Source: a virus. Taken from it: 64,000 bases of DNA. Below, one piece after another: positions 312 through 27,242 of this stretch. The notes under the pieces are model-generated. The model was not told where the DNA came from and did no database searches. It saw nothing but the letters and a program-made list of their open reading frames with translations. Numbering within the stretch: the first letter of the stretch is position 1; each line of letters starts with the position of its first letter. The translations under genes and the position numbers were made by a program. Location of the stretch: IMG/VR virus record IMGVR_UViG_3300008448_011250, positions 1 to 64,000 of that record. One strand, 5' to 3'.

Positions 312-1991
312 ATGAGTTTAAATTCATTATTACAAAGTCCAGACGCTTCTCAACGTGCTGCATCGGTAGCAATCGTTAATAAGTGGGAAAAAACCGGACT
401 ATTAGAAGGTCTTAAACGTGAGACTGAAAGAGCCGGAATGGCACAATTGCTTGAAAACCAAGCACGTCAATTAGTAAAAGAAGCTTCACAAACAGGTACT
501 GCAGAAGGATCTGAAGAGTGGGCAGGTGTTGCACTTCCATTGGTAAGAAGAATCTTCGCTGAATTTGCAGCTAAAGAATTCGTTTCTGTTCAACCAATGA
601 ACTTGCCATCGGGTCTAGTATTTTATTTAGACTTTAAATATGGTACAGCTCAACCAGGATTCAATGATGATAACAACAACAGAACAGGTGATCCATTTGG
701 TAATCCTAATGCATTAGATTCATTGTTTGGTGTTACTACAACTGGTTCTGATGCGGCAGGTGGTCTTTATGGTGCTGGTCGTTTCGGTTATTCAATTAAG
801 AGTGTAACAACTTCAAACTTGTCAGCAGTTGCTTCAACAGGTTCTGGCGCAGGTGCATTAACAAATGCAGCAGATGTTAACTTTGATAGCGCGTATTCTG
901 CTTCATTGTCAAGCTACAAAAAAATAACTGTTGCAATGCCAAATGATGCTGATTTATTTGCGGTTAGAGCATTTACATTAGTATCTGGTTCAACTGAAAT
1001 CATTCCAGTTCAAGCATTCTCTTCAATTACTTCAGCTTACACTGCATCATTTATTGTTACAACTGCAGATGCAACAGAAATTCAAAAAGCAATTTCAGCT
1101 TCTAACTTTAAAGTTAATTACAGTGTTCAACCTATCTCTTATGAAAGAGGTGATTTTGAAGATACTAATCCATTCAAAGGTTCTACCGCAAATAGTGGTA
1201 TCGATGATGGTACTGATATTAACATCCCTGAATTGAACTTAGAGCTTCAATCAGATCCAATCGTTGCTAAGACTCGTAAGTTGAAAGCAGTTTGGACACC
1301 TGAATTTGCTCAAGATCTTAACGCTTACCACTCAATTGATGCTGAAGCTGAATTGACTTCAATGCTTTCTGAGTATGTATCAATGGAAATCGATCTTGAG
1401 ATCCTTGATATGTTGATTTCAGCAGCCCCAACAACTGAGTATTGGTCAGCTTTAAATAACAATGTATGGAATGGTAATGGATTTACTCAAGCTGCTGCTG
1501 GTTCAGTTGGTTCGGCTGGTGATGGATTCTACAACACTCAAGGTGGATGGTTCCAAACATTGGGTACTAAACTTCAAAAAGTATCTAACAAAATTCACCA
1601 AAAAACATTACGTGGTGGTGCTAACTTCTTAGTAACATCTCCTGCAGTTGCAACTATTCTTGAGTCTATCCCAGGATTTGCTGCAGACACTGATGGAACT
1701 AAAATGGAATTTGCAGCTGGTGTACAAAAAATTGGTGCAATCAATAACCGTTACACAGTTTACAAAAATCCATATATGTTAGAGAACGTAATCCTAATGG
1801 GATTCAGAGGAAGTCAATTCCTTGAAACAGGTGCTGTATTTAGCCCTTATATTCCGTTGATTATGACTCCACTTGTATACGATCCAGTTAACTTCACTCC
1901 ACGTAAAGGTGTCATGACACGTTACGCGAAGAAAGTAGTTCGTCCAGAATTCTACGGAAAAGTATATGTTCACGGATTAAACACTCTTTAA
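312..1991 (+). CDS. Major capsid protein (T4 gp23-like) with S/T/A-rich insertion
   Basis: gp23 motifs LPLVRR, VSVQPMNLPSGLVFYLDF, AKTRKLKAVWTPEFAQDLNAYHSIDAEAEL, PYIPL, FTPRKGVMTRYA. GGAG RBS at 301. Confidence 0.95.
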   Translation: MSLNSLLQSPDASQRAASVAIVNKWEKTGLLEGLKRETERAGMAQLLENQARQLVKEASQTGTAEGSEEWAGVALPLVRRIFAEFAAKEFVSVQPMNLPSGLVFYLDFKYGTAQPGFNDDNNNRTGDPFGNPNALDSLFGVTTTGSDAAGGLYGAGRFGYSIKSVTTSNLSAVASTGSGAGALTNAADVNFDSAYSASLSSYKKITVAMPNDADLFAVRAFTLVSGSTEIIPVQAFSSITSAYTASFIVTTADATEIQKAISASNFKVNYSVQPISYERGDFEDTNPFKGSTANSGIDDGTDINIPELNLELQSDPIVAKTRKLKAVWTPEFAQDLNAYHSIDAEAELTSMLSEYVSMEIDLEILDMLISAAPTTEYWSALNNNVWNGNGFTQAAAGSVGSAGDGFYNTQGGWFQTLGTKLQKVSNKIHQKTLRGGANFLVTSPAVATILESIPGFAADTDGTKMEFAAGVQKIGAINNRYTVYKNPYMLENVILMGFRGSQFLETGAVFSPYIPLIMTPLVYDPVNFTPRKGVMTRYAKKVVRPEFYGKVYVHGLNTL

Positions 1992-2016
1992 TAAGTTAAA
2001 CAATTAACTAATTAAG

Positions 2017-2047
2017 AAGAAGGGATGGCTCCGGTCATCCCTTTCTT
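2017..2047 (+). terminator. Intrinsic terminator after capsid gene
   Basis: AGGGATGGC-TCCG-GTCATCCCT stem-loop followed by TTCTT. Confidence 0.8.
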
Positions 2048-2055
2048 ACTGTTCG

Positions 2056-2064
2056 ATATTTATA
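2056..2064 (+). promoter_or_regulatory. Putative late promoter motif ATATTTAT(A), representative copy
   Basis: Same motif 10-25 nt upstream of starts at 2056, 3028, 9618, 15939, 18501, 19101, 20110, 28557, 30243, 35390, 50525 and 52643. Confidence 0.7.
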
Positions 2065-2074
2065 TTAAAAGATT

Positions 2075-2350
2075 ATGGCAGTTCCGTATGTTAAATATTC
2101 AATGGAAGTAATCATCAGATATGATGGTCGCTTAGTAGACGTATTAGATAGAATACGTGCAATTACCTTAGTACTCATGGTTCATATCGAACAAGACTTA
2201 GGCCCAGACAAAGAACGAATTACAATTAAGGTAATGACACCACATCCACCTAGACAAACGTATTTTGCTATTCGTAAAGCATGTTTAGGAAAGATTGAAA
2301 CACTTAAAGATATGTCATTGCAAGAATCAACACTTACAAAATTAGTTTAA
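2075..2350 (+). CDS. Hypothetical protein
   Basis: 91 aa ORF filling the gap, preceded by the ATATTTATA motif. Confidence 0.7.
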   Translation: MAVPYVKYSMEVIIRYDGRLVDVLDRIRAITLVLMVHIEQDLGPDKERITIKVMTPHPPRQTYFAIRKACLGKIETLKDMSLQESTLTKLV

Positions 2351-2362
2351 CGAAAGCAAGTT

Positions 2363-3028: not shown

Positions 3029-3052
3029 TATTTATATATAAAAGGATAAATC

Positions 3053-4285
3053 ATGGATTACTCAGAAAATAAGCCCATATGGCCTGGATCTTCTTCGTTT
3101 ACAACTGGATCAACACCATTTGGCTTTTTTGATACCGATCCCATGTTTCAACAACATGCAGATTCGTTTGCAAAATATGCCGCACAACAGGTTGGATATC
3201 CTATCATGGATGTTGAACTTTTAGCAATAAATTTTTATGCTGCATTTGAAGCAGCTACCATGGAATATTCCAATCAAATTAATCAAGTTAATATTATTAA
3301 TAATTTAGTATCAACTCTGGGAGTACAAACCGGTTCAAATGTTTTAGGAGCAAAAGGGTTGACAGGTACTTTAGTTGGCCAATCATTAGGATATATTACT
3401 AAATTATCAAAAGCATATGGTACTGAAGCTGATTCGGGAGGAACCGTACGTTGGTATTCGGCATCAATTGATATCGTCTCAGGACAACAAACATATAGTA
3501 TTAGACAAGCAGTATCAGCATCATTTGCTGCGGCAGGAAAAACTCTTTCAAATACTAGTTCAATTGAGATTAAACGAGTATTGCATAATGTACCTCCTGC
3601 AATTGTTAGATACTTTGATCCGTTTGTAGGAACAGGTTTAGGTTCTCAACAATTACTTGATGCATTTGATTTTGGAGGATTTTCGCCATCGGTTAATTTC
3701 ATGATGATGCCGATTCATATGGATTTGCTTCGTATACAAACTATAGAATTCAATGATCAAATACGTAAATCACATTTTTCTTTTGATATACATGGAGATG
3801 ATATACGAATATACCCTGTACCTGGAACGCAAGGCACAATGGCTTCTCCATATTTTAAAAATGTTTGGATTGAATTTTTATTTGAAGAAGATAAAGGTAA
3901 AGAAGCAATACTATTCGGAAATACAGCTGTACAAGATGGTTTGATAACAGATGCATCAAATATACCATATACATATCAAACTTATAAATCAATCAATGAT
4001 ATGGGGCGTGCTTGGATTATTAGATATGGAACGGCTCTAGTTAAAGAAACATTGGGATATGTACGTAGTAAATATTCATCAGTTCCAATTCCAAATGGTG
4101 AAGTAACGCTTAACGGAACTGATTTAGTTACACAAGGTCAGACTGAAAAAGAAGCATTAATAACGCAGCTTCGAGAATTTTTAGAAAAAATGACTAAAGA
4201 ACAAATGCTAACTCGACAAAATGCAGAAGCAACACAAATGAGTGAAATACTAGGCAAAGTGCCTTTGAAAATTTATATAGGATAA
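3053..4285 (+). CDS. Neck / head-tail adaptor protein (gp13-like)
   Basis: Position after the capsid gene. GYPIMDVEL N-terminal motif and VRSKYSSVPIPNGEVTLNG C-terminal motif resemble gp13-type adaptors. Confidence 0.7.
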   Translation: MDYSENKPIWPGSSSFTTGSTPFGFFDTDPMFQQHADSFAKYAAQQVGYPIMDVELLAINFYAAFEAATMEYSNQINQVNIINNLVSTLGVQTGSNVLGAKGLTGTLVGQSLGYITKLSKAYGTEADSGGTVRWYSASIDIVSGQQTYSIRQAVSASFAAAGKTLSNTSSIEIKRVLHNVPPAIVRYFDPFVGTGLGSQQLLDAFDFGGFSPSVNFMMMPIHMDLLRIQTIEFNDQIRKSHFSFDIHGDDIRIYPVPGTQGTMASPYFKNVWIEFLFEEDKGKEAILFGNTAVQDGLITDASNIPYTYQTYKSINDMGRAWIIRYGTALVKETLGYVRSKYSSVPIPNGEVTLNGTDLVTQGQTEKEALITQLREFLEKMTKEQMLTRQNAEATQMSEILGKVPLKIYIG

Positions 4286-4287
4286 AC

Positions 4288-4809: not shown

Positions 4810-6035
4810 TGCCTAAATATAACAAACAAAATATTGACCGTAAAACAAATAAACCTGCATTGAAACGAACAGAAGGTTTAACGCCAGATGTATTGTTGAA
4901 TCGTGCAATGCAAATTCGTCGAGATGATGACGTAATTCGTAGTGCAAAACGTACGGCATATGATATTGACTATGCAATTAAATGGTACATTGAAAATGAA
5001 ATACAACCACAAATAACGGCAAATGAATCTGTAATTAATGTTCCAGTTATTTTTGCTAACGGAGAGAAATGGGACAATGTACGTAGATTAGGATATATAC
5101 GTGATGAAAAAGGAATGTTGCAATCTCCATTAATCATGTTGAAACGAAATAGTATTGCTGAACGTGATGAACATCGTACGTTAGATGTTAATAGACCACA
5201 ATCTGGAAATCAAATAGTTTATCGACAACGATATAATGAACGTAATCGTTATGAAGATGAATTATTTCCAATACCAACAAATCAACCAGCAGACTCAGAA
5301 AAAATTTATATTGTAGATATTCCAAAATATGTTACATTGGAATATGATATGATGATATGGTGTGATTTTACAACACAACTTAATGATTTAATTGATCAAA
5401 TATTACCATATGGGCGATTTGCTTGGGGAAATGATGCAAATAAATTTGCTACAACTATTGGGTCAGTATCATTTGAAACAGTGAATACAGTAGGCGAAGA
5501 TCGTTTAGTTAGAGCAACTATACCACTAACTGTTTTAGGAACGTTGCTTTCTGCACAAGAATCTAGAATTGAAACAATTCGAAAGGCATATTCACTTAAA
5601 AAAGTTTCATTTGATGTTGTAGTTGATGTTGGCAATCTTAATATATTTAGTACAACGCAAGTTCCACAAGCAGTACTTCAAAATCAACAACAAGTTATGT
5701 CCGGAGGCTCCGTAGTAGTTTCGGGGGGCGGTTCTACCATATCACTTAATGCAGCCGCAATGTTGTATTTAACCGCATTAACAGACAAACAAGCAACATA
5801 TGTCAATGCAACAACGGTGACGGTAGCAGCGTATGCTGCAATTAATCCAGTAACTAATACAATTGCAACGGTAAATGAATTTGATGTTTATATTAACGGA
5901 CAATATATTGATAAAGTAGTATATACATGGACGCCTACCGATGCATCAACGCAAACCATTGTGTTTAATACTTCCGTGTTAGGATATGGTATAGATCCTA
6001 CAGACACGGTAATTATAAACGGGAGATGGCAATAA
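4809..6035 (+). CDS. Tail terminator / sheath stabiliser (gp15-like) with C-terminal extension
   Basis: VPVIFANGEKW, PKYVTLEYDMMIW, QILPY motifs; synteny. Confidence 0.6.
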   Translation: MPKYNKQNIDRKTNKPALKRTEGLTPDVLLNRAMQIRRDDDVIRSAKRTAYDIDYAIKWYIENEIQPQITANESVINVPVIFANGEKWDNVRRLGYIRDEKGMLQSPLIMLKRNSIAERDEHRTLDVNRPQSGNQIVYRQRYNERNRYEDELFPIPTNQPADSEKIYIVDIPKYVTLEYDMMIWCDFTTQLNDLIDQILPYGRFAWGNDANKFATTIGSVSFETVNTVGEDRLVRATIPLTVLGTLLSAQESRIETIRKAYSLKKVSFDVVVDVGNLNIFSTTQVPQAVLQNQQQVMSGGSVVVSGGGSTISLNAAAMLYLTALTDKQATYVNATTVTVAAYAAINPVTNTIATVNEFDVYINGQYIDKVVYTWTPTDASTQTIVFNTSVLGYGIDPTDTVIINGRWQ

Positions 6036-9000
6036 TGAGACAGTTTAAGCCCGGACAATTACAATCAGGTTCACTATATCCAATTAGTGCAAGTTATGCA
6101 CTTACAGCATCATATCTATCAGGTAGCATATCAATTGACACTGGATCTTTAGTAACAACATCATCATTCAATGCATTTACTGCATCATATACAACCGGTT
6201 CATTTACGGGTTCATTTAAGGGCGATGGTTCTCAATTAACAGGCATTGTTTCAAGCAAATGGACCGGATCAAATCCTATATCACGCGAAAGCGATGTTGA
6301 AATAACAGGATCATTACGCATACAAGGTAGTATAACAGGTTCATTGTTCGGAACTGCCAGCTGGGCAAATAATGCAATAACTGCTTCATTTGTTAATCCG
6401 CTTGTACAAAATGTATTAATTACAGGTTCAATAACTGCAACTTCATTTACAGGTAGTTTAAGTGGATCCGTTACAGCACCAGGTTCATCATCACAAGTAA
6501 TTTTCAATAATGCAAACGTTTTATCTGCAGATGCTGGATTTACTTATAGTGGTAGTAAATTATCATTGGGTCAATTAAATGTTAATGGAGAAGTTATCTT
6601 AAATAGAGCATCAACTGGTCAAACTGTTGGAGGAATCCGTGCTATCCCTGGTGGAACGGAAATTGGAGGTTCGACGTATCTTGATAGGATAATTTTAGGT
6701 AATGGATCCGGTTTACAATTCTTTACCTTTACTTCAGGTGCTGGTAATGCTGAACGTATGCGAATCACATCTGGAACAAGTGGTGTGGGCGTTGGTATTG
6801 GAACTACAACAGTTTCAGCATCTCTTCACATATCCGGTGCAGATTCAGCTGCTTTATTTAGAATAGATTCTCCAAGTAATCCAAATATATTATTTGTAAC
6901 TGGCAGTGGACGAATTGGTATTGGAAAAACAACACCAAACGCTCGCCTAGATGTTACCGGATCTGCAATCATAACAGGTTCATTAACAGTAACACAAGGT
7001 ATTACAGGTTCACTATTTGGTACTGCAAGTTGGGCTGAAAATGCCATAACTGCTTCATATATAACAGCATCTGGAGTATATGGTCCATATGGTGCAAATA
7101 GTGTTACATCATCATCATATGCAGCAACAGCATCATATTCAAAAAACATACAAATATCAGGTTCGGTAAATAATGTTGATTATATTGATTTTAATACTGG
7201 TTCAGCAATACCTGCATGGAAATCGGGTCGTGTATTTTGGGATAACACTGATGGAGCATTGGCTGTATATAATGCAGAAGCTGACATTACTTTACAAGTT
7301 GGCCAAGAAAATTGGACGCGCGTATCAAATAGAACAGGTACTACAATTACAAACGGTACCGTTGTTAGACTATTAGGGGCACATGGTGACGTCCCTGAAG
7401 TTGAAAGAGCACAATCGCTTTTAGTATCGGGAAGTATAAATGTACTTAATCAAATACTAGGTGTAGCAACTCATGATATTGAACATAACTCAAAAGGTTA
7501 TGTAACAACACAAGGCCTTGTTAGAGGTTTAAATACTAATGCATTTAATGATGGCGACACGTTATTTGTTGGTACGGGATCATCAGGAGCTTTAACAAAC
7601 ATTCCGCCATATGCTCCGTATGAAATTATTCCAGTAGGCGTTTGTGTCAAAGCAGGCCCGGGCGGAAGTGGAATCATATACGTTGCTGTACAAGAACCAA
7701 TTGATTTTTCAGATTTAAGTTCGGTGCTAGTTGAAGGCATATACCATTATGGAGATTTGTGGACATATGTACAAAGTGGTAGTACCGGTGTTTGGACACA
7801 CACTAACCAACTTTCTGGTTCTTATGGCTTAACTGGTTCATTAACTGCAACTAGCATAACAGCATCTAATTTATATGCAGGTGCAACATACATATCTGGT
7901 TCATTGATAGTAAATGGTCAATCTACGTTTTACGGTACAGCTTCATTCGTTAGTGTAACTGCATCCAATTTATTTGTTAGTGAATCATTTATTTCCGTAA
8001 ATGTATTTGAACCGGTAGAACGGTTTGGAGGACTTAAAGTATATGATTCTGGTTCTTCCACAGCGACTGCTAGCTTGGCCTGGGACTCACTTCATAATCA
8101 TTGGGTATATCAAAATGTAGATGGTTTAACATATACCGGAGGTATGCTTTTATCAGGTCCTAGAAACACCGGATCATTAGGTGATGAACCTAACTTAACT
8201 AAATGGGTTGTCCCGCGCAGTGATGGCGGAGATCACTTAAACGACTCACAAATATTTACAAGTGCATCTGTAACACAAATTACAGGTTCATTAACTGTAA
8301 CAGCAGGAATAACGGGTAGTTTAAATGGAACATCAAGTTTTGCTACAAGCGCATCATTTGCAACAAGCGCATCATATGCACTAACAGCATCATATCTAGA
8401 TAATTACATTCCACCGTTTCCATATACAGGTTCAGCTCGTATAACTGGATCATTAGGCGTAACTGGATCATTAGAAATAACCGGATCTCAGGTTTATCTT
8501 AAAACTAATGGTTTTATAGTTGAAAATGTTGACCTTAATGCTAGTTTAATAGAAGCAACAACCGCCGGAGGTGTTTATGTTTGGAGTACAAACTCTAACC
8601 CATCAGCTGATTTTGAAAATAGACAATTATTAGATGAAAATGGCAGTGCTAGCATTGTCTGGACAACTCAACGAACTTTAGAACATGATAATGGCGCAGT
8701 ATTAGATTGGGCTAATCAAACACTAAACGATTACGATACATTACCATCGGTAAATTGGACTAATAGATATCTTTACGATCTAAATGGCAATCTTATGATA
8801 GCTTACGGAGGAGGAGATGGATTAAATATAGTAAATTATCGTCCCACTATTGAAGCCTTAACATTAGATATACAAGAGGATTTTACACAAACCAATGTCT
8901 ATTCTCTAAATGCTAATGCTGCTGGTAATATTATAGAGGTTTCAACAAACATAAGTTTAGCAGTAACAGCATCTAATCCTGTATTTTTAGACACAGATGG

Positions 9001-9328
9001 TATATGGAAACGATCAGATCAAACAACTGACACCACTACAAAACTTTTAGGAATTTGCGTAGAACCATATAACAAAGGCCTAATTCTAACAGAAGGAATA
9101 ATCACAGTCACAACAGCATCTGGATACCCAGACACTATGCCGTTTGTAAGTGGAAGTAGTTTTTACGGTATGCCTGTGTACTTAACCGGATCTACTGCAG
9201 CATTTACTACAACTAAACCAACCTCAGGATATGTAAGAGTGGTAGGTCATATGTATTATAACAGCACAACAACACCAGACTATTGGATAATGAAATTTAA
9301 CCCTTCTAACGATTGGTATGAGATATGA
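6026..9328 (+). CDS. Long modular fibre / structural protein rich in TGS/TAS/SGS/SAS
   Basis: 1100 aa. ERMRITS-G-VGIGT and GRIGIGKTTP..LDV fibre repeats; repeated ITGSLFGTASWA linkers. Confidence 0.75.
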   Translation: MAIMRQFKPGQLQSGSLYPISASYALTASYLSGSISIDTGSLVTTSSFNAFTASYTTGSFTGSFKGDGSQLTGIVSSKWTGSNPISRESDVEITGSLRIQGSITGSLFGTASWANNAITASFVNPLVQNVLITGSITATSFTGSLSGSVTAPGSSSQVIFNNANVLSADAGFTYSGSKLSLGQLNVNGEVILNRASTGQTVGGIRAIPGGTEIGGSTYLDRIILGNGSGLQFFTFTSGAGNAERMRITSGTSGVGVGIGTTTVSASLHISGADSAALFRIDSPSNPNILFVTGSGRIGIGKTTPNARLDVTGSAIITGSLTVTQGITGSLFGTASWAENAITASYITASGVYGPYGANSVTSSSYAATASYSKNIQISGSVNNVDYIDFNTGSAIPAWKSGRVFWDNTDGALAVYNAEADITLQVGQENWTRVSNRTGTTITNGTVVRLLGAHGDVPEVERAQSLLVSGSINVLNQILGVATHDIEHNSKGYVTTQGLVRGLNTNAFNDGDTLFVGTGSSGALTNIPPYAPYEIIPVGVCVKAGPGGSGIIYVAVQEPIDFSDLSSVLVEGIYHYGDLWTYVQSGSTGVWTHTNQLSGSYGLTGSLTATSITASNLYAGATYISGSLIVNGQSTFYGTASFVSVTASNLFVSESFISVNVFEPVERFGGLKVYDSGSSTATASLAWDSLHNHWVYQNVDGLTYTGGMLLSGPRNTGSLGDEPNLTKWVVPRSDGGDHLNDSQIFTSASVTQITGSLTVTAGITGSLNGTSSFATSASFATSASYALTASYLDNYIPPFPYTGSARITGSLGVTGSLEITGSQVYLKTNGFIVENVDLNASLIEATTAGGVYVWSTNSNPSADFENRQLLDENGSASIVWTTQRTLEHDNGAVLDWANQTLNDYDTLPSVNWTNRYLYDLNGNLMIAYGGGDGLNIVNYRPTIEALTLDIQEDFTQTNVYSLNANAAGNIIEVSTNISLAVTASNPVFLDTDGIWKRSDQTTDTTTKLLGICVEPYNKGLILTEGIITVTTASGYPDTMPFVSGSSFYGMPVYLTGSTAAFTTTKPTSGYVRVVGHMYYNSTTTPDYWIMKFNPSNDWYEI
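8339..8400 (+). repeat. Short tandem coding repeat (FATSAS)x2 followed by YALTASY
   Basis: tttgctacaagcgcatca-tttgcaacaagcgcatca-tatgca. Confidence 0.8.
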
Positions 9329-9627
9329 GTAACATAACAAAAATAAACGGTTTTCAAATAACAGCAGAGAGTGCTTCTTTTGCTGTAACCGCATCATATT
9401 TATCTGGAGCTGCACCTACCATAACATATATACGCAGAAGCGATTATACTGCGTCTCTTGATGCAAACGTAAATTTATTATATCTAGGAGAAGCAGTAAG
9501 TGGCTCAGCAGAATCTGCTACCGTTTGGGACATTACACGATTATCAATATCATCATCTGGTGCAACAACACCTAATTCAGCTTCCGGAGTAGCTTGGACC
9601 AATAGATATTCATATACATATTTATAA
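9325..9627 (+). CDS. Small fibre-associated structural protein
   Basis: Shares SAS(F/Y)AxTASYLSG with the N-terminus of the 6026 protein; overlapping ATGA start. Confidence 0.65.
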   Translation: MSNITKINGFQITAESASFAVTASYLSGAAPTITYIRRSDYTASLDANVNLLYLGEAVSGSAESATVWDITRLSISSSGATTPNSASGVAWTNRYSYTYL

Positions 9628-9931: not shown

Positions 9932-11335
9932 ATGCCGAATCGTTGGCCCATAGCATCAGGTAATTGGAGTGACTCGGCAATTTGGTCAGGTTCAATTAAA
10001 CCTGTTGCTGGGGATGATGTATTTGCTAATAATCAATCAATTTATATAGATGAAGATATTAATGTTGCTACATTAAGAAATTCTTCAACAACTGGGGTTA
10101 CACAAGGTGGAATATTTTACATAAATAATGGAGTTAATATTAATTTAACAGCAAATCCTGCAATGTATCATACAGGTCCAGCAGTATTTGCAGTTACAAA
10201 CACACCTTTAGTAATTATTTCTGGTTCAAATACCGCATCACTTACTGGAAGTTTAGGGGCAACTACATATGGTCCAAAAATCCATTTACAAGATAATTCA
10301 AGTTTACGTATTTCCGGAAGTGTAGTTTCTACAACTAACACAGCAAATATAGGAATACGACATAGTTCAACTGGCAATTTAACTATAACAGGTAGCATTA
10401 CAACGGGAGGAGGACAATCTTCTCATACAATTTACATCGATAGCTCAAGTTCTACTAATATATCCGGAAGTGTAGTTGGTGCAGGTAATGCAATAGGTAT
10501 ATATAATCTTTCATCTGGTACTGTCCGTATTGTAGGAACAGTCACTGGCGCAAATGGTGGTAATGGGGCAATATCTGTTTATAACCTAGCAAATGGAAAT
10601 ATTATAGTTACAGGTAGTATTTTAGGTGCATCCGATGCTAACTATAATGGTAAATGGGGTATTTACAATACCTCTAATGGAAATGTTTATGTTTCTGGTA
10701 GTGTTATTGGCGGCCAAGGAGGTCAACAAGCTAATGGTGTAGCAAATACTTCTGTAGGTACAGTTATAATAGATGGAACTGTAACTGCTGGTACAGCTGG
10801 ATCCGGCCCAAACGCTTCAATGTATGGTGTATTCAATTCAGGAACAGGAACCCTAATTGTTAGAGGAGCCATCTCAGCTAGTACAATATCACCGGGTGTT
10901 GGAGCTACAGCAACAACTTCCACTAACTTATTCACAGGCCCATTCTACAACACAGGTTCATTCAATGCTGTTTTTGCATATCGTATGCAAGTATTTGATC
11001 AACCAACACGCTGGACTTTTGACACGGAAACAGCGGGTGTCGTAAAAACACTATATACTTCAAATCAACTTCCCGGAGTACCTCAACAAACAGATGTACG
11101 TAAAGGAACAACATATAATTTTGGATTAACTGGCTCACTTGCAATGCCAGATCCAACAACGGTAAAAACGGGTGTTGCAACAGACAATACAACAGGCTCT
11201 GCTATTTTAACAGCAGAAGATATGTTTGGAGTTTTAACACAAAATATAACTACTTCGGGTAGTATAGGAACATTATTAACCGGAGCTTCCACTGCACAAA
11301 CAGTAGGAGCTACCATTGCATCATTTAAAGTATAA
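9932..11335 (+). CDS. MPNRW-family G/S/T/N-rich beta-solenoid-like structural protein, copy 1
   Basis: Conserved N-terminus MPNRWPIASGNWS, repetitive GIxNxSxGxVxVxG core, C-terminal DNTTGSA block. Confidence 0.75.
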   Translation: MPNRWPIASGNWSDSAIWSGSIKPVAGDDVFANNQSIYIDEDINVATLRNSSTTGVTQGGIFYINNGVNINLTANPAMYHTGPAVFAVTNTPLVIISGSNTASLTGSLGATTYGPKIHLQDNSSLRISGSVVSTTNTANIGIRHSSTGNLTITGSITTGGGQSSHTIYIDSSSSTNISGSVVGAGNAIGIYNLSSGTVRIVGTVTGANGGNGAISVYNLANGNIIVTGSILGASDANYNGKWGIYNTSNGNVYVSGSVIGGQGGQQANGVANTSVGTVIIDGTVTAGTAGSGPNASMYGVFNSGTGTLIVRGAISASTISPGVGATATTSTNLFTGPFYNTGSFNAVFAYRMQVFDQPTRWTFDTETAGVVKTLYTSNQLPGVPQQTDVRKGTTYNFGLTGSLAMPDPTTVKTGVATDNTTGSAILTAEDMFGVLTQNITTSGSIGTLLTGASTAQTVGATIASFKV

Positions 11336-11337
11336 TT

Positions 11338-12846
11338 ATGCCGAATAGATGGGCAGTAGCATCAGGAAATTGGTCAAATACCGCAACATGGAACAATGGA
11401 GCTGTATTAGGAGCACCTACTGCATCTGATGTAGCATATGCAAATAACCAATCAATTTATATTGATACTAACGTAACAGTACAAGCATTAAGTAACGCAG
11501 CACTAGCAGGTACTGCATCTGTATCAGGTAGTTTTTATTTGAATAACGCCATAACGGCTAGTACAACTGCGGCAACTGGATTAATAAGTGCTGTATCAAA
11601 TACACCATTAGTTTATATCAGCGGTTCTAGTCAAGCTCGTATTAATACAACAATGGGTGATACTACAGGTATTCGTATACGAACATTGGATAATTCAACT
11701 CTTACGGTTAGCGGAAGTGTCTTTGGGGGAAGTGCACAGCTAGGATATGGTATTCTACACACGTCAACTGGCACGCTATATATTACCGGCAGTATATCTC
11801 TGGGAACGAACTTATTACAATATGGGTTATACGTTTCAGCTAGCGCGGGTCCAACTTTTATTTTAGGTAATATAATAGGTGGAGTATCCCAAGCTGTACT
11901 TAATAACTCAATCACCGGAAGTATAACTGTATACGGAAATGTAACAGCCGGTGGATTTTCTAATGGTTCTGGTGTAATAAATTCAGGTGGTGGTAATCTT
12001 AACGTATATGGTAATGTAACATCTAATGCCAATACGGGAATCAGTAACACCGGCACCGGAAATGTATTCGTACAAGGTACTGTTTCATCATTTTTCGGAA
12101 CAAATGCAGGAATTGCAATAGCAAACTCATCAACTGGTAATGTAACAGTTATAGGTAATGTGATTGGTAGCAATGCAACATCTGCACCATCAGTTGGAAT
12201 AAGTAATACCAGTACCGGTATCATAATCGTAACAGGAAGTATCATAGGAAATAATGCTGCAGGAATATCTACATCTGGTGACACATATATTTCCGGATCA
12301 GTAACAGCTGGCGCAGCTGCTACTGGAATATCATCAACTGCTAATAAATTAATACAAGTAATAGGACCTATTACAGCCGGAATTACCACCCCAGGAATAA
12401 CATCAACGGGAACATCTACAACATGTAGTTTGTCAGGACCTTTTATTAATAAAAATAACCGTAATGCAGTTTATGCGCCAAACATTTTTATTATATCAGG
12501 TTCTACGCCAACATGGGTATTTGATACAGAAACATACGGAGAACAAAGAACCCTATATACACAAAATTATCCCGGTAATTTTCCATCTGCCTCAAACGTA
12601 AGACAAGGAATAGTATTTGGAGATACAAACCAATTTACAGGAACAGTAGCAATACCTCCTACTGGTTCTGTACTTAAAGGAGTACTTGTAGATAATACAA
12701 CAGGTTCTGCTTCATTTGATACACAAAGTGTGTGGGGTATAAACACAAATTTATTAACTGTAACCGGAAGCTTAGGAGCACGTTTACGCAATGTTGCAAC
12801 AGTTGCAACAGATGGTGCTGCAATAGCTTCAAAAGGAAAATTATAA
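11338..12846 (+). CDS. MPNRW-family structural protein, copy 2
   Basis: Paralog of the 9932 ORF with the same terminal blocks. Confidence 0.75.
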   Translation: MPNRWAVASGNWSNTATWNNGAVLGAPTASDVAYANNQSIYIDTNVTVQALSNAALAGTASVSGSFYLNNAITASTTAATGLISAVSNTPLVYISGSSQARINTTMGDTTGIRIRTLDNSTLTVSGSVFGGSAQLGYGILHTSTGTLYITGSISLGTNLLQYGLYVSASAGPTFILGNIIGGVSQAVLNNSITGSITVYGNVTAGGFSNGSGVINSGGGNLNVYGNVTSNANTGISNTGTGNVFVQGTVSSFFGTNAGIAIANSSTGNVTVIGNVIGSNATSAPSVGISNTSTGIIIVTGSIIGNNAAGISTSGDTYISGSVTAGAAATGISSTANKLIQVIGPITAGITTPGITSTGTSTTCSLSGPFINKNNRNAVYAPNIFIISGSTPTWVFDTETYGEQRTLYTQNYPGNFPSASNVRQGIVFGDTNQFTGTVAIPPTGSVLKGVLVDNTTGSASFDTQSVWGINTNLLTVTGSLGARLRNVATVATDGAAIASKGKL

Positions 12847-12849
12847 GAT

Positions 12850-14286
12850 ATGCCGAATAGATGGCCCATAGCGAATGGAAATTGGAGCGATACCGCAATA
12901 TGGAATGGTGGTTTGGGATTACCTACTGCATCAGATGATGTGTATGCAAATTTAAAAACAGTAGTAATTGATACCAATGTTACGGTTTTTAGAATGACAA
13001 ATGCTGCATCTGCCTCTGCTATATTAGGCGGAGGGACATTTTTACTTGCAAATGGAGTAACATTAACTGCAACTTCACCAACAGGTATAACACCATTTGC
13101 ACCCGTAGCATCTGGCTCTGTTCTTTTAATATCTGGTTCTAATTCTGCTACTATTATAGGAAATTTAAGACCATTAAGAAACTCATCTGGAGCATGGCCT
13201 TCGGGTAGTGCTGGTTTAACACTAAGTGTACGGAATAATGCTCAGGTAACTATTACTGGAAGTGTCGCTGGAAATTCAGGATTTATTGGCTCAATAGGAA
13301 TTACAGTAAGTGGTTCTGGAGCCGTTGTGAATATTTCTGGAAGTGTCGAAACAGGACCTGGCCAGGGAGGTATAACATCCCAAGCTGGTATTTCAGTATC
13401 CCCACGCGGGTCTGTAAATATTAATGGTAATGTATCATTTTTTAATATAACTGATCTAGGAGCAGCAAATGCAATTGTATTTAATAGCTCGGATATATTA
13501 ACAATTACTGGAAGTGTGATACAAACTGATGCTAATAATTCAACAATTGCAAATACTTCTGGAACTGGTAGTATATATATCTCTGGAAGTTTGATCGGCC
13601 GAACAACTAGTACTAGTGCTATTATATCAAAAACTACAGCTGGAGATATTATTGTAATAGGAAACTTACTAGGTCCAACATCTGCAAATGCTATATCACA
13701 TACATCTACAGGCAATATAATCGTTTCAGGAAGTATTATAAAAATAGGTGCAGGTATCCCTATATCAACAACGGGAGCTTCAACAACCATAGTTACCGGT
13801 TCTATATCATTTACTGGTTCGATTTCTGGGCCTGTTATTTCTTCAACCTCAACTTCTGGTTTAGTTAGAATTGCTAGCCCCGTTGCTAGTTTTAATACAT
13901 TTAATCCAATATACTCACCCAGAATACAATATTTTTCAGATTCTCGTCCAGCTTATACTTTCCAATCAGACACATTTGGTAAAGATGTAACATTTTATGA
14001 TGTATCATATACCGCGAGCCTACCTTCTCAAACCGATGTTCGAAGTGGAAGTTTATATGGTGGATCAAACGAATTTTCTGGTTCAATGGTAGTACCTTCA
14101 ACAGGTTCTGTACGGTTTGGAGTGCCCGTAGATAATACGACAGGATCTGCCACACTAACACCGCAAGACATTTTAACGTATGCAACTCAAAATTTAACGG
14201 GTTCAAATACAATTGGAGCTCGTTTACGAAATATATCAACAACACAAACTGCAGCAGCAACTATTGCTGCTTTTAAAGGAAAATAA
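12850..14286 (+). CDS. MPNRW-family structural protein, copy 3
   Basis: Paralog of the 9932 ORF. Confidence 0.75.
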   Translation: MPNRWPIANGNWSDTAIWNGGLGLPTASDDVYANLKTVVIDTNVTVFRMTNAASASAILGGGTFLLANGVTLTATSPTGITPFAPVASGSVLLISGSNSATIIGNLRPLRNSSGAWPSGSAGLTLSVRNNAQVTITGSVAGNSGFIGSIGITVSGSGAVVNISGSVETGPGQGGITSQAGISVSPRGSVNINGNVSFFNITDLGAANAIVFNSSDILTITGSVIQTDANNSTIANTSGTGSIYISGSLIGRTTSTSAIISKTTAGDIIVIGNLLGPTSANAISHTSTGNIIVSGSIIKIGAGIPISTTGASTTIVTGSISFTGSISGPVISSTSTSGLVRIASPVASFNTFNPIYSPRIQYFSDSRPAYTFQSDTFGKDVTFYDVSYTASLPSQTDVRSGSLYGGSNEFSGSMVVPSTGSVRFGVPVDNTTGSATLTPQDILTYATQNLTGSNTIGARLRNISTTQTAAATIAAFKGK

Positions 14287-14287
14287 A

Positions 14288-15607
14288 ATGCCAAACAGAT
14301 GGCCTATAGCAAATGGTAATTGGAGCGACTCAGCAATTTGGAGCGGTAGCATAATACCTACTGCAGCGGATGATGTATTCTTAAATAATCAAACAATAAC
14401 ATTGGATCAAACCATTATTGTGAGGAGTATACGAATAGGAGCAACAGGTAGTGCTGTTGCTGGCGGATTACTTAATATTTATAGTGACTATGACATTGCA
14501 TGTACAACTACACAATCAAATCTTGCAGGAGGATTAGACAGTAATGGTGCTACCGTAACCGGAGGATTTGTAAAATACTACAACACCGGATCAATCACAA
14601 TAATAGCACATTTAGTTGCTGCAAGAAATACTTTAGAAAATGTTAATAATGGCACTATTAATATAACAGGAGATGTTAGAATACCAAGTAACGTTATTAC
14701 AAATGGTAGAACTATAACAAATACATCGAATGGTATTATCAATATAATAGGAAATATTTCTGCAGGAACTACAATACAATCAGGAAATTATGCTATATTA
14801 AATTCTTCAAATGGAACTATCTCAATAATAGGAAATGTAACAGGAGGTAATAACGCATCTGCGCCCCATGCTATTGTTAATAATAGTATTGGAACAATTA
14901 ACGTAACAGGTACAGTAACAGGCGGTGCAACGGGCGCAACATATGGTATTAATAATGCTCTTAATGGTATAGTTAATGTAACTGGAAATGTAAATGGAGG
15001 CACTGCATTAACAGGCCATGGTATTAATAATGCATCAATTGGAACAATTAATGTTACAGGTAATATTACAGCTGGTTCTCAAACAGGAACTGGAATTAAT
15101 TCAACTACAGCTGGTATAATAAACATAATAGGTCAATTACAAGCCACGACAACAGCAAATGCAGTATCATCAACATCAACCACAGCAACTAACTTGCTTT
15201 CAGGTCCATTCATCAATTCAGGCTCACGCAACGCAATATATTGCTATAACGTACAAATGTATAAAAATGCCGTCACATCATATCAAATTGGTGTTTCTGG
15301 TTCTGCTAACATAATAACATTGCTTAGTGAAGACCAAGCACTCGGAATGCCTACATCTGCAAATGTAAGAACTGGCACCATATATGGCCCAACTTCAGCA
15401 ATAACAGGTTCAATGGCTGTTCCAAATCCACAATCAGTATCATGGGGAGTAGCAGTAGACAATACTACGGGTTCGGCACTAGTTAAACCAGAAGATTTAT
15501 GGAATTATGCCATAACCTCATTAACGGCATCAAACAGCATCGGTCAACGTTTAGCTAATGCATCAACATCGGCTTCTACAGCTGCAACAGTAAATGCATT
15601 TGGATAA
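14288..15607 (+). CDS. MPNRW-family structural protein, copy 4 (start corrected from 14213)
   Basis: ATG at 14288 gives MPNRWPIANGNWS, matching the paralogs, 1 nt after the previous stop. Confidence 0.75.
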   Translation: MPNRWPIANGNWSDSAIWSGSIIPTAADDVFLNNQTITLDQTIIVRSIRIGATGSAVAGGLLNIYSDYDIACTTTQSNLAGGLDSNGATVTGGFVKYYNTGSITIIAHLVAARNTLENVNNGTINITGDVRIPSNVITNGRTITNTSNGIINIIGNISAGTTIQSGNYAILNSSNGTISIIGNVTGGNNASAPHAIVNNSIGTINVTGTVTGGATGATYGINNALNGIVNVTGNVNGGTALTGHGINNASIGTINVTGNITAGSQTGTGINSTTAGIINIIGQLQATTTANAVSSTSTTATNLLSGPFINSGSRNAIYCYNVQMYKNAVTSYQIGVSGSANIITLLSEDQALGMPTSANVRTGTIYGPTSAITGSMAVPNPQSVSWGVAVDNTTGSALVKPEDLWNYAITSLTASNSIGQRLANASTSASTAATVNAFG

Positions 15608-15969: not shown

Positions 15970-18447
15970 ATGGCAGAAAGAATAATTTCGCCCGGAGTAT
16001 TTACGAGAGAGGTAGATCAATCGTTTTTACCCGGAGCAATTGCACAAATTGGTGCAGCAATAATAGGACCAACTGTAAAAGGTCCTGCACTAGTTCCAAC
16101 ACAAATTACATCGCTTTCACAATTTCAAAACACATTTGGATCATTCACTGATGAATCATATGTTCCATTCGTTGTTAAAGAATACTTAGAAAAAGGTGGA
16201 AATGTAATTACAGTAACACGTTTATTGTACGAAGATGGATATGAATTATCAAATGGTGTATTAGCTATTGTAGCACAATCAGGTTCAACCAAAGTTGTAT
16301 CTCACGTATTACATCCAACGTACCCAGTAACAACTACGGGTGCAACAAATCTATTTGAAGATTCAGTATTGCTTGATGCAGGTTCGGGAAGTTTTGCAAT
16401 TAAAATATCTGGATCATACGGTGTAGCTACAGGTACTGATGCAACGGCAATTAGTTTTGGCGGTTCATTCTTAGTAGCAGAAGGAGTTGCAATTTCAGCA
16501 TCAATTACGCCTTCAAGCAATAGATACCTAACCAAAGTATTTTCAGCTGATCCAAAGTCAATTGATTATCCAGTATATGTACAATATGATACTGATACAA
16601 CCGGGTTATTTGCAAACATAGGTCATGTAACAATGTCTTTAGAAAAGATTGCAAGTTTTAGACTATTACAGGATTATCAGTCTGCATCAACACCATGGGT
16701 AACTTCACAAAAAGTTGGAAGTACCGCAAAAAACTTGTTTAAGTTTCATACATTATCGCATGGTACATCAGTTAATTATGATGTTAAAGTTTCTATCTCA
16801 GAGCTTGTTACAAGTGACGAAACAAATGACCCAGATGGTTATGGATCATTTACGGTACAGATTCGTCGAGTAAATCCGCAAAATTTAGGAATTGAAAATT
16901 CTCCATATGGAAACAATTCAGATACAGATTCGTCTCCGGCATTAGTTTCATTTCAAAATGTTAATTTGAATCCAGCATCATCTAGATACATTGCACGAGT
17001 AATTGGAGACCGTTATCAAACTGTAACAGACAATGGCGTAGTTGTTATTAACGGAGATTATCCAAACACAAATGCATGGATCCGAGTAGAAGTTGATCCA
17101 GGTGTTGCAAATAAAACAAATAGCAAAACGTTAATTCCGTTTGGATTTAGATCAATGTCAAGTCCAATACCAATGGCATCCGGCTCATTGAATTTAACTG
17201 CTACTTCATATGTTACTTCGCAAGTAGTTGGCGGAAATTATAGCAGTTTAAATTTACATGGATTTGATTTTGGTAGCACGAACAACAGAGCATATTTAGC
17301 TCCAACTCCAACTAGTGGTTCTGTAACCGGAAGTAACGCAGATTTTTATCTTGGAGATGTTAATCAATCTGCACAAGTAGGATATCCGTCTGCAACTGCA
17401 GCATATTCGGGTTCATTAGAATCTGCATTAACAGGTGGAACATTCCAAGCAAATGTTGCATTATCAACACGTAAGTTTGTTGTTGCATTCCAAGGTGGAT
17501 TTGACGGAGCTCGTCCAAACTTACCAAAATATGCTGGAACTTATATTGCTGATGATAATACATTTGGATTTGATTGTAGCACTACAACATCTACAGGTAC
17601 AACAGCATATAATAAAGCATTCACAGTATTGAGCAATACTGATTATTATGATATGAATTTATTGTTAACACCGGGTATTATCGATAGTTTGCATGGATCA
17701 GTAACATTATCTGCAAGACAATTAGCAGAAGGACGTCAAGATACATTCTATGTAATGGATTCAAATGCATTAACAGATTCAATTAATTCAGTAACAACAC
17801 AAGTTCAAACTTTGGATAGCAATTATACAGCAACATATTGGCCATGGGTTAGAATAACCAATCCTAGCAACAATGTTCCATTATGGGTTCCACCTTCAGT
17901 TGTAGTTCCAGGAGTATTGTCATACAATGATGCAGTAGCTCAACCATGGTATGCACCTGCAGGTTTGAATCGTGGCGGCTTAACTAGTGTTACTGATACT
18001 TATATTAGATTGTTGCAAAGTGATCGAGATACATTGTATCAAGCTCGTGTTAACCCTATTGCGAACTTCGTAAATGATGGCGTTTGCATTTGGGGGCAAA
18101 AGACACTACAAGCTAGACCAAGTGCATTAGACCGAGTAAATGTGCGTCGTTTGCTTATTGCGGTTAAGAAATTTATTGCATCTTCAACTCGTTATTTAGT
18201 ATTTGAACAAAATACAGCATCAACACGAGCAAGATTCTTAAGCATCACAAACCCATACTTAGAACAAGTAAGAGCACAGCAAGGTTTATTTGCATTTCGA
18301 GTTATTATGGATGAAACAAATAATACTCCAGATGTAATTGATCAAAACATATTATACGGACAATTATTTTTGCAACCAACTAGAACGGCTGAATTTATTG
18401 TATTAGATTTCAATATTCAACCGACAGGAGCAAGTTTCCCGGCATAA
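15970..18447 (+). CDS. Contractile tail sheath protein
   Basis: SPGVFTREVD, GPTVKGP, YWPWV, PWYAPAGLNRG, RDTLYQARVNPI, WGQKTLQ, LDRVNVRRL, PTRTAEFIVLDF. Confidence 0.95.
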   Translation: MAERIISPGVFTREVDQSFLPGAIAQIGAAIIGPTVKGPALVPTQITSLSQFQNTFGSFTDESYVPFVVKEYLEKGGNVITVTRLLYEDGYELSNGVLAIVAQSGSTKVVSHVLHPTYPVTTTGATNLFEDSVLLDAGSGSFAIKISGSYGVATGTDATAISFGGSFLVAEGVAISASITPSSNRYLTKVFSADPKSIDYPVYVQYDTDTTGLFANIGHVTMSLEKIASFRLLQDYQSASTPWVTSQKVGSTAKNLFKFHTLSHGTSVNYDVKVSISELVTSDETNDPDGYGSFTVQIRRVNPQNLGIENSPYGNNSDTDSSPALVSFQNVNLNPASSRYIARVIGDRYQTVTDNGVVVINGDYPNTNAWIRVEVDPGVANKTNSKTLIPFGFRSMSSPIPMASGSLNLTATSYVTSQVVGGNYSSLNLHGFDFGSTNNRAYLAPTPTSGSVTGSNADFYLGDVNQSAQVGYPSATAAYSGSLESALTGGTFQANVALSTRKFVVAFQGGFDGARPNLPKYAGTYIADDNTFGFDCSTTTSTGTTAYNKAFTVLSNTDYYDMNLLLTPGIIDSLHGSVTLSARQLAEGRQDTFYVMDSNALTDSINSVTTQVQTLDSNYTATYWPWVRITNPSNNVPLWVPPSVVVPGVLSYNDAVAQPWYAPAGLNRGGLTSVTDTYIRLLQSDRDTLYQARVNPIANFVNDGVCIWGQKTLQARPSALDRVNVRRLLIAVKKFIASSTRYLVFEQNTASTRARFLSITNPYLEQVRAQQGLFAFRVIMDETNNTPDVIDQNILYGQLFLQPTRTAEFIVLDFNIQPTGASFPA

Positions 18448-19091: not shown

Positions 19092-19133
19092 ATGTTCTGT
19101 ATATTTATATTAAAGTTATAAAAGGAAATCATA

Positions 19134-19889: not shown

Positions 19890-20109
19890 ACCAGAAGATC
19901 GTGTTAAATTGCATGAAAATATTTTTAATTTGATTTGGTGGGGTGCTGGTCGTTGGGACTGGGATACTATATATCATATGCCCGTACACATTCGGCGATT
20001 TTGGACTAAAAAAGTCAACAAGATGATTGAAGATGAAAATGATCGGCAAGAACAATTGGCAAATGCTGCTAAAACAAAACGACGTGCAGTACCAAAATCT
20101 CCTAGATAA
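19876..20109 (+). CDS. Downstream chaperone segment (gp51/gpT-like), probably reached by frameshift
   Basis: +1 frame FFGFKPEDR...W..DTIYHMPVHIRRFW overlapping the end of the upstream ORF at CTT TTT TGG TTT TAA; no convincing RBS of its own. Confidence 0.6.
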   Translation, partial: FFGFKPEDRVKLHENIFNLIWWGAGRWDWDTIYHMPVHIRRFWTKKVNKMIEDENDRQEQLANAAKTKRRAVPKSPR

Positions 20110-20135
20110 ATATTTATTAAAAAGAAGAGTTCAGT

Positions 20136-21818: not shown

Positions 21819-21827
21819 GGATAAAAC

Positions 21828-23579: not shown

Positions 23580-23582
23580 ACG

Positions 23583-23885
23583 ATGAGCAGATATTTAACA
23601 GCATTAACAGAACGAGATAAAGTAACAGAAAAAAGAAAATTATCAACTGTTATAATTCCCGCTGCCCCTATCCGGACAGATGATGTATATATAAAAACAA
23701 TTGGTGTAGAACGTTTAGATAAATTATCCTTATTGTTTTATCAAGATGCTGCATTTTGGTGGGTTATTGCTGCTGCAAATGGTTTAGGAAAAGGCACATT
23801 GCTTGTTCCATCGGGTATCAACATAAGAATACCAAGTTTTACAAACATGCAAAGTTATATTAATGAAACAAACTCATCACGATGA
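23583..23885 (+). CDS. Baseplate wedge LysM-like protein (gp53/gpX-like)
   Basis: ERLDKLS..FYQD..FWWVIAAANGL...G..IRIP. Confidence 0.8.
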   Translation: MSRYLTALTERDKVTEKRKLSTVIIPAAPIRTDDVYIKTIGVERLDKLSLLFYQDAAFWWVIAAANGLGKGTLLVPSGINIRIPSFTNMQSYINETNSSR

Positions 23886-26620: not shown

Positions 26621-26624
26621 AAAT

Positions 26625-27242
26625 ATGGCACGTTTAAAATTATATTATCCCGCAGAAGAAATTACTAATAATCTTTATACATTTGGTTCGGAATTAATGA
26701 CTGAAGATAATGTAGAATATGTAGGTCCGTTTCATCGTTATGTTACTGGTGAAGTATATACTGGTTCAACTTGGAACGCAAAAACATCAAAAAAATTAGT
26801 TGTATTTCAACAACAAAATAAAATAACAATTTACAATACACTAAAACCAGATATAAAAGTAAAGTATATAACGCCAAAACGCATACAGCCGCAAATAACA
26901 TCAGCTGATATTTCGAGAGGTTCGATTCAACGTTATTTTATTTGCAAACAAAATGAACGCATTATTTTTGAAGTAGATGCCGCACAATACAATGACTGGA
27001 CTAGCAATGTTATTGATAATAAAATATACATTGCAACGCGTATTGAATGGACAATAACGGGGCCTATACAAGATTCACAAAAAGGAAACGTTTTAATACC
27101 AGGCGCTACAACTAAAAATATACAACAAATAAAAGTTGCAACACGTACGATTCCAGCAATTGCTTCAATTTTAACAGACCCTTTAGAATTCTATACAGAT
27201 ACGGATTACATTGCACCCGTCGACATTAACGGTTTGAAATAA
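26625..27242 (+). CDS. Hypothetical (probably structural) protein
   Basis: LYT.G.E...EYVGPFH..YTG and RYF motifs; end of the tail operon. Confidence 0.6.
   Translation: MARLKLYYPAEEITNNLYTFGSELMTEDNVEYVGPFHRYVTGEVYTGSTWNAKTSKKLVVFQQQNKITIYNTLKPDIKVKYITPKRIQPQITSADISRGSIQRYFICKQNERIIFEVDAAQYNDWTSNVIDNKIYIATRIEWTITGPIQDSQKGNVLIPGATTKNIQQIKVATRTIPAIASILTDPLEFYTDTDYIAPVDINGLK

Follow-up and report, generated by a model that had tools for sequence, protein, structure and literature searches.

A serine-ending tripeptide enriched in outward-facing virion proteins of an uncultured T4-like phage as a candidate acceptor motif for phage-encoded glycosylation

Virion genes of the window and the tripeptide in their products

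We analysed the first 64 kb (hereafter the window) of an 86.6-kb viral contig, IMG/VR record IMGVR_UViG_3300008448_011250, for the tripeptide [ST][GA]S, which recurs in its virion proteins, and for the glycosyltransferase (GT) genes found in the same stretch; positions given as contig positions above 64,000 lie beyond the window. Every gene of the window is carried on the + strand. The structural part encodes a gp23-like major capsid protein (MCP) with an insertion, PhoH, a neck protein, an 1100-aa fibre, four MPNRW paralogues, the sheath, the tube and the baseplate; after it come genes for replication, a 7-deazaguanine set (FolE/QueD/QueE), PolB and a GT cluster. The source phage is uncultured and of Flavobacterium type. 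Its closest cultured relatives are Flavobacterium phage vB_FspM_immuto (immuto), with 55% identity in the MCP, and Microcystis phage Mel-JY01. LR756508, an uncultured huge phage, is as close as these two, and Rhodothermus phage RM378 is farther away. Thousands of close homologues of the MCP are present in metagenomes.

Outward-facing virion proteins contain [ST][GA]S at 3–7 times the frequency expected by chance, based on shuffles of whole proteins and of blocks of 40, 20 and 10 residues. The MCP (312..1991; PHROG 138, E 1e-66), a protein of 559 residues with an insertion domain at about residues 100–300, has 6 motifs where 2.0 are expected (p ~0.01), all of them inside residues 144–264. The neck or head-tail adaptor protein (3053..4285; PHROG 211) has 4 compared to 1.1 expected (p ~0.02), and the sheath (15970..18447; PHROG 23, E 5e-70), which also bears insertion domains, has 10 compared to 3.0 (p ≤0.001). 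Pooled, these three proteins have 20 motifs against 6.2 expected, without periodicity. The counts are higher still in the 1100-aa fibre (6026..9328), with 55 motifs where 8 are expected, and in the four MPNRW paralogues (9932..15607), with 60 in total where 14 are expected; a 100-aa protein (9325..9627), which has a SAS/TAS module in common with the fibre, has 5 compared to 1.1. No excess was found in the tube, hub and other baseplate proteins taken together (4 motifs versus 4.9 expected) or in 44 non-structural proteins (9 versus 9.3), and the tube protein, like 70 of its orthologues, has no motif at all.

These counts bear on a preliminary description of the locus, made by eye from the sequence. 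The peptides it quoted from the capsid, neck, sheath, fibre and the four MPNRW paralogues are all found at those genes, the abundance it noticed holds against shuffled controls in these proteins and in the 100-aa protein, and its impression that the motif is rare outside virion proteins agrees with the chance-level count in the non-structural set. The two peptides it placed in the baseplate hub, PTGST and ASGST, belong instead to a 912-aa baseplate protein (23882-26620), in which 2 motifs compared to 1.3 expected is chance level. Two further observations concern the motif-rich genes themselves. The start of the fourth MPNRW paralogue (14213-15607) is most likely the Met of MPNRW at 14288, since the longer TTG-initiated ORF overlaps the preceding gene. 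Beyond the window, a 188-aa protein (contig 67849-68415), encoded after the GT island and an amidase gene, has 11 motifs where 2.4 are expected and contains TGS/SAS modules like those of the fibre.

The excess is specific to the order of the residues and to serine in the third position. In seven divergent genomes, an unbiased scan of all tripeptides in the sheath, neck and MCP places SGS first (41 occurrences versus 8.6 expected, z 10.7), and the other high-ranking words each reflect one conserved site that is counted in every orthologue. The threonine-ending [ST][GA]T occurs at 1.3, 0.76 and 1.08 times expectation in the three protein groups, and none of [ST][GA]T, [GA][ST][GA], [ST][ST][GA] and [ST]-hydrophobic-[ST] is enriched in any group. 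The codons that encode the motif are diverse, and thus the signal lies at the level of protein. Three other causes were rejected: a DNA-level cause by this codon diversity, a composition artefact by the block shuffles and because words that are permuted or end in Thr show no excess, and a generic trait of phage structural proteins by the counts in T4, S-PM2, HTVC008M and phi38:1.

The setting of the motif differs between the protein groups. In the 1100-aa fibre, motifs often lie in 6-residue repeats of the form hydrophobic-T-G-S-hydrophobic-x, while in the MPNRW paralogues a motif recurs every 21–30 residues in the context hydrophobic-x-hydrophobic-[ST]-G-S-hydrophobic, a repeat that looks like a beta-helix coil; in both, residues −1 and +1 are mostly I, V, L, F or Y. 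Scans of the fibre and MPNRW proteins with Pfam and PHROG gave no informative family. AlphaFold2 models of the sheath and MCP were built from shallow alignments and have a mean pLDDT of 49 and 40, and we therefore used only the secondary structure of their better segments, in which TAS 244 and SAS 176 lie within strands and SGS 480 just before a helix. The central domain of the fibre (residues ~380–600) is 30–41% identical to tail fibres of unrelated small phages (Roseobacter CRP-6, Pseudomonas Rollin, Acinetobacter phiAC-1 and Nitrincola 1M3-16) and has a weak match to Phage_cement_2, a head-decoration family; the motif-rich flanks are not common to those phages.

Within close relatives, individual sites are retained. 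Among 78 sheath orthologues of 65–97% identity, SGS at 104, 139, 147 and 480 is kept in 76–78 of the 79 sequences although the flanks vary, G, A and S interchange at the middle residue, and the mean is 8.0 motifs per protein compared to 2.6 expected. Three of the six MCP sites (144, 225 and 244) are near-invariant among 120 close homologues (106–119 of 121 sequences), and the neck has three motif sites in common with that of Mel-JY01 at 45% identity. Between sublineages of 40–60% identity, few sites are in common and most have been replaced, yet the density of motifs is still high; the alignments across sublineages contain 18 distinct motif columns in the MCP and 37 in the sheath. LR756508 has other, often charged residues at the motif positions of this phage (e.g. 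AAGD, HRVEF, RKDFI, YQEDN), which indicates that the folds tolerate absence of the motif. A scan with the RM378 capsid as query recovered only ordinary T4-like capsids. Between neck and sheath, the fibre genes of relatives are highly variable: the MPNRW paralogues occur in 1 of 80 loci, and in their place other motif-rich N-termini recur (e.g. MANEF..., MPNWKKV..SGS and MAEWKKV..SGS).

A conserved glycosyltransferase triad and its co-occurrence with the motif

Three adjacent GT genes form the conserved part of the GT cluster. The first encodes a GT4-like protein of 495 aa (GT4-495; 52673..54160) with an EX7E motif (E333..E341) and weak Pfam matches, the second a GT4-like protein of 419 aa (GT4-419; 54157..55416), likewise with EX7E (E279..E287), and the third a small GT2-like protein of 206 aa (GT2-206; 55446..56066) whose Pfam GT2 match falls below the cut-off. 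The triad is followed by a variable glycan-tailoring island (56053..64000, continuing to about contig 65191) with GT2s, an FkbM methyltransferase, a short-chain dehydrogenase/reductase (SDR), a hexapeptide acyltransferase, a PIG-L deacetylase, a DUF6492 protein and a methyltransferase. Counting the GT4-like genes at 52673 and 54157, the GT2 or GT2-like genes at 55446, 56053, 62482 and contig 63977 (just past the window) and a GT-B gene at 44995, the statement of the preliminary description that at least six glycosyltransferases are accompanied by tailoring enzymes is correct. The gene at 44995 lies inside the dpdA operon, that is, among the genes for 7-deazaguanine in DNA, and its product probably serves DNA rather than the virion.

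The conserved block comprises a nuclease, a SLOG protein, GT4-495, GT4-419 and GT2-206, and is kept in ~160 related IMG/VR loci at 42–95% identity. GT4-495 belongs to the core in 155 of 160 loci, and GT4-495 and GT4-419 are adjacent in 155 of 160, whereas any one gene of the island is common to just 1–10 of the 160. The GT4-419 family comprises 361 clusters at E ≤1e-30; in the cultured-phage database its only members are in immuto and Mel-JY01, and it was not found in LR756508, in RM378 or in G001, a complete 263-kb genome. GT2-206 has orthologues in immuto, Mel-JY01, RM378 and four further genomes (G004, G006, G007 and G009), but none in LR756508 or G001. No independent, unrelated phage lineage with GT4-419 was found: 80 divergent IMG/VR loci belong to the same superclade and have the same synteny, and for one divergent representative of the family no viral contig was recovered.

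Both GT4 families retain the EX7E glutamates invariantly or nearly so, and for both the closest solved relative by profile comparison is chlorovirus B736L (E 1.5e-16 for GT4-495). B736L is itself a putative capsid-glycan transferase, with its own acceptor and activity unproven (PMC4691112). A model of the GT4-495/GT4-419 complex scored 0.88, compared to 0.00 for the best of three controls; contacts coincide between its runs to 97% or more, and the partner has a pLDDT of at least 89. Among solved complexes 58 of 80 attain such a score, and among mismatched pairs 2 of 110, but because our model was built from alignments of our own, these counts apply only roughly. The model supports a predicted heterodimer with an interface formed by residues 118–178 and 477–486 of GT4-495 and residues 46–259 of GT4-419, but the score may in part reflect likeness to solved GT-B pairs. 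A short peptide, ELPKLQK(I/V), is found at the N-terminus of GT4-495 (52676-52696) and, as LPKLQK in 1–3 tandem copies among relatives and in tandem here, at the C-terminus of GT4-419 (55368-55413); it is kept in most of ~50 distinct related loci, although a few GT4-495 orthologues lack it. The peptide lies outside the predicted interface and may thus serve to dock both enzymes to a third partner. In Mel-JY01 (PP395634.1, 83441-84920) the GT4-495 orthologue is split into two ORFs (query residues 14–177 and 199–481), which may reflect a true split of the gene, a frameshift or an error in sequencing. When the genes of the cluster were scanned against Pfam, a few had no family match at all, and no flippase, polymerase or priming phosphoglycosyl transferase was found; this lack of lipid-carrier and export families points to a cytoplasmic acceptor.

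The region upstream of GT4-495 is of the structural-gene type. The motif ATATTTATA, at 52643..52651 on the + strand before GT4-495, also precedes, by 10–30 nt, the genes for the neck, sheath, tube and hub and two small genes of the structural region, and the GT4-495 motif and leader are nearly identical to those of the baseplate hub gene. Upstream sequences of the window fall into two classes. One consists of ATATTTATA with an AAGGA-type leader (e.g. 3028, 15939, 18501, 19101 and 52643) and precedes structural genes, GT4-495, the ribonucleotide reductase (RNR) gene and a gene at 30265; the other has a TATAAT/TATATTA-like box almost at the start codon and precedes replication genes and the GT2-206 gene (e.g. 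27269, 34030, 37582, 44234, 51072 and 55446).

We then compared GT content with motif excess across genomes, using whole genomes or large parts of them and scoring a protein as enriched if it has 4 or more motifs and these amount to no less than 2.5 times the expectation from local shuffles. The excess is present in all seven genomes with GT4-495, GT4-419 and GT2-206, that is, in this partial contig (10 enriched proteins), immuto (10), Mel-JY01 (12), G004 (13), the 271-kb G006 (13), G007 (12) and G009 (9), an association that is perfect at this sample size. RM378, which has only GT4-495 and a GT2 relative, has 7 enriched proteins. LR756508 (416 of 484 kb), with an intact GT4-495 only, and G001, with none of the three genes, have no enriched protein. 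Of the outgroups, T4 has none, and S-PM2, phi38:1 and HTVC008M have one each. Motif excess in this sample is confined to genomes with at least part of the conserved GT set. We considered that the GT4-495 of LR756508 might be a pseudogene and rejected this, since the true start lies downstream of the in-frame TGA. In that phage (LR756508.1, 303690-306748) the order nuclease, SLOG, GT4-495 is kept and GT4-419 and GT2-206 are missing; its GT4-495 has no ELPKLQK N-terminus and is followed by about a dozen small genes without BLAST relatives.

Comparison with known glycosylation systems

The architecture of the locus can be compared with several known systems. In Che8-type mycobacteriophages, virion proteins are reportedly glycosylated by phage-encoded GTs (Freeman et al. 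2023, Cell Host Microbe). The likeness is that phage-encoded GTs are proposed to work in the cytoplasm on virion proteins. In the mycobacteriophages, however, the capsid and tail-tube subunits carry their glycans on C-terminal extensions, whereas here the motif is in internal insertion domains, the neck and fibres; the MCP motifs lie within 144–264 of 559 residues, and the tube has none. We know of no defined short sequon in the mycobacteriophage system. The hosts and phage lineages are also unrelated, and here a conserved triad is followed by a variable glycan island of ~10 kb. Mycobacteriophage virion glycosylation is cited in PMC12619734.

In chlorovirus PBCV-1, the capsid protein Vp54 is glycosylated autonomously, with A64R and B736L as putative GTs (PMC4691112). 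As in the chloroviruses, which use soluble virus GTs with tailoring and methylating enzymes, atypical sequons and none of the canonical host machinery (PMC4691112), we find a soluble GT and tailoring set without a lipid-carrier route, no Wzx, Wzy or priming transferase being matched in the Pfam scans mentioned above. However, chlorovirus glycans are N-linked to Asn, whereas Asn is absent from the motif here, in which Ser is the fixed residue, and chloroviruses are viruses of eukaryotic algae.

The priming pair GtfA/GtfB of Gram-positive serine-rich repeat adhesins (PMC6973325) offers a further parallel. There, as here, two adjacent GT-B proteins form a complex (in the phage by prediction), a conserved pair is followed by a variable number of extending GTs that give diverse glycans (PMC6973325), and the acceptors, in the phage putative ones, are cytoplasmic, Ser-rich and SAS/TAS-like. 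The differences are substantial: neither phage GT4 has DUF1975, Pfam giving only weak Glycos_transf_1 or GT4 matches, and GtfA (4pqg) is a marginal profile match (E 0.0035); both phage GT4s keep EX7E, whereas GtfB is a non-catalytic chaperone, so that no split into a catalytic and a non-catalytic subunit is seen; and the phage acceptors would be short isolated tripeptides in folded domains, with no accessory Sec export. By analogy, the phage architecture would work like that of GtfA/GtfB with variable GTs and like that of the chloroviruses, but it lacks what defines either family.

The enzymes Aah and TibC add heptose to Ser/Thr at the turns of the beta-helices of the AIDA-I and TibA autotransporters, in the cytoplasm and at a short strand-loop-strand motif. 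Such beta-helix turn acceptors resemble the MPNRW paralogues. Aah and TibC are dodecameric heptosyltransferases that use ADP-heptose as donor, and no gene for a heptosyltransferase of this type was seen in the window. General O-glycosylation in Bacteroidota uses the sequon D-[ST]-[AILVMT] and periplasmic transfer from a lipid-linked glycan, whereas phage virions assemble in the cytoplasm. The Bacteroidota sequon is not what we find, since Asp, in both protein groups, does not rank among the seven residues most often found at −1 of the motif, and neither a flippase nor an oligosaccharyltransferase was found in the Pfam scans of the cluster genes.

Candidate O-glycosylation of the virion and competing explanations

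On the basis of these sequence comparisons, we suggest that the best explanation, held tentatively, is that [ST][GA]S, with Ser fixed at position 3, is a candidate acceptor motif of a phage-encoded cytoplasmic O-glycosylation of the virion. The motif may be an enzyme recognition site because it is lineage-specific and Ser-specific, is in excess only in outward-facing and non-homologous proteins, turns over at constant density, is dispensable for the folds and co-occurs with GT genes; the triad would be best explained as its obvious reader and the variable island as the elaborator of the glycan. In the mechanism we envisage, the triad, consisting of the two GT4s as a predicted heterodimer and the small GT2, would be expressed late and would prime exposed Ser/Thr of the motif in the insertion domain of the capsid, in those of the sheath, and in the neck and fibres, and the GT2s, methyltransferases, acyltransferase, deacetylase and SDR of the hypervariable downstream island would elaborate a lineage-specific glycan. 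That the GTs act on these proteins is what we infer, as are the residue modified and the purpose of the glycan, be it shielding, stability or adsorption; by the same inference the virion would bear the dense O-glycan coat proposed in the preliminary description. With slightly less confidence, we extend this proposal to the widespread aquatic T4-like (immuto-like) lineage as a whole, in which a whole-virion O-glycan coat at a Ser-specific sequon may be primed by the GT4 pair and GT2, with the island giving each phage its own glycan ‘serotype’. Hosts of the lineage include Flavobacterium and, reportedly, Microcystis.

Several observations weigh against this explanation. Of the 140 motifs encoded by structural genes as far as the sheath, about 120 belong to fibres, in which they form part of periodic repeats; of all occurrences, ~80% sit in periodic repeats of fibres or beta-helices. 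Repeat structure could adequately explain the excess in the fibres and MPNRW paralogues, although it is compatible with modification. In the poor models described above, SGS 104 and 139 of the sheath and SGS 225 of the MCP are predicted at beta-hairpin turns, where Gly is structurally expected. LR756508 has an intact GT4-495 yet no motif excess, and RM378 has the excess in 7 proteins yet no GT4-419. Furthermore, LR756508 and G001 are one clade in an MCP tree that is otherwise an unresolved star, compatible with one transition where independent gains and losses were to be counted; the joint change in triad and excess thus counts as a single co-transition, in a clade that differs in many other genes as well. 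The co-variation of motif and GTs anticipated in the preliminary description is therefore seen in all seven triad genomes but reduces to one clade-level transition. The upstream sequences are also mixed: ATATTTATA is found before the RNR gene (35414) and before the gene of no assigned function at 30265, and thus the ‘late’ timing of the genes that carry it is only putative, and the GT2-206 gene has a different, replication-type upstream sequence. A literature search found no paper with proteomic or glycan data for virions of this lineage.

If the motif were purely structural, [ST]-G-S and [ST]-A-S would be turn or strand elements of beta-helix coils, hexapeptide repeats and beta-hairpins, spread by module shuffling and kept for folding, and the GT cluster would have another acceptor. 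We consider this unlikely overall, although it is the main rival and fits the fibres well: periodic recurrence with hydrophobic flanks is what we find there, repeated modules are common to the fibre, the 100-aa protein and the 188-aa protein (contig 67849-68415), the better parts of the models place SGS at hairpin turns and TAS/SAS in strands, and Gly at MCP site 225 persists in LR756508 (AAGD) and RM378 (ASGD). It leaves unexplained, however, why the same Ser-specific tripeptide is found in the unrelated, non-repetitive folds of the capsid, neck and sheath, and the pattern is not general to phage fibres, since T4, S-PM2, HTVC008M and phi38:1, as well as LR756508 and G001, lack the excess despite having fibres and homologous capsid and sheath folds. 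Turnover of sites with maintained density also speaks against it, as does the lack of enrichment of generic strand alternation such as [ST]-V-[ST]. Two claims of the preliminary description can be judged in this light. The convergence of one tripeptide in non-homologous proteins stands for the capsid, neck and sheath, but many fibre sites are repeated, homologous modules; that the tripeptide is an enzyme recognition site gains from the order-specific excess, the turnover and the association with the triad, and loses from the structural fibre repeats and the single transition.

The motif might instead be read by something other than the phage GTs, such as another modification (phosphorylation or acylation), a host enzyme or a binding partner, e.g. 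a decoration protein. The statistical signal is silent on the agent that reads the motif, and the cluster also encodes methyl- and acyltransferases, but we regard this as improbable: the window revealed neither a kinase nor any other enzyme that modifies proteins, a host enzyme is disfavoured by hosts as different as Flavobacterium, Microcystis and Rhodothermus, and among conserved candidate enzymes only the GTs track the motif. Very improbable, in our view, is that the triad modifies DNA or nucleotides and that the virion motif is unrelated to it. The triad does lie beside a PD-(D/E)XK nuclease, a SLOG-domain protein and replication genes, even LR756508 retains the nuclease-SLOG-GT4 synteny, which in RM378 lies beside replication genes, and another GT (44995) is in the dpdA operon. 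However, DNA of immuto contains only dA, dC, dT and fdPreQ1 by HPLC-MS, with no glycosylated nucleoside (PMC10516641), and since immuto carries the triad, DNA is unlikely to be its acceptor. In addition, no hydroxymethylase was found, the ThyA homologue of the contig scores as a canonical thymidylate synthase (302 bits), and GT4-495 has the upstream motif of structural genes.

To our knowledge, virion glycosylation by phage enzymes is documented only for mycobacteriophages, and there without a short sequon. If the O-glycosylation proposed here is correct, it would be the first sequon-directed protein glycosylation described for tailed phages, and phage glycoproteins would become predictable from sequence. 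It would account for the large GT islands that are frequent in genomes of aquatic phages, would be relevant to the stability and adsorption of phages, to grazing and to recognition by immune systems, and might provide a compact cytoplasmic tag for glyco-engineering. The hypothesis is testable now, since immuto and Mel-JY01 have been isolated on known hosts.

Near the end of the contig (contig 81576-84782), we also noted two genes outside these subjects, one for a thymidylate synthase of 375 aa that contains an insertion and the other an ORF for a GroEL-like chaperonin, which we recognized by eye from the N-terminus of its product.

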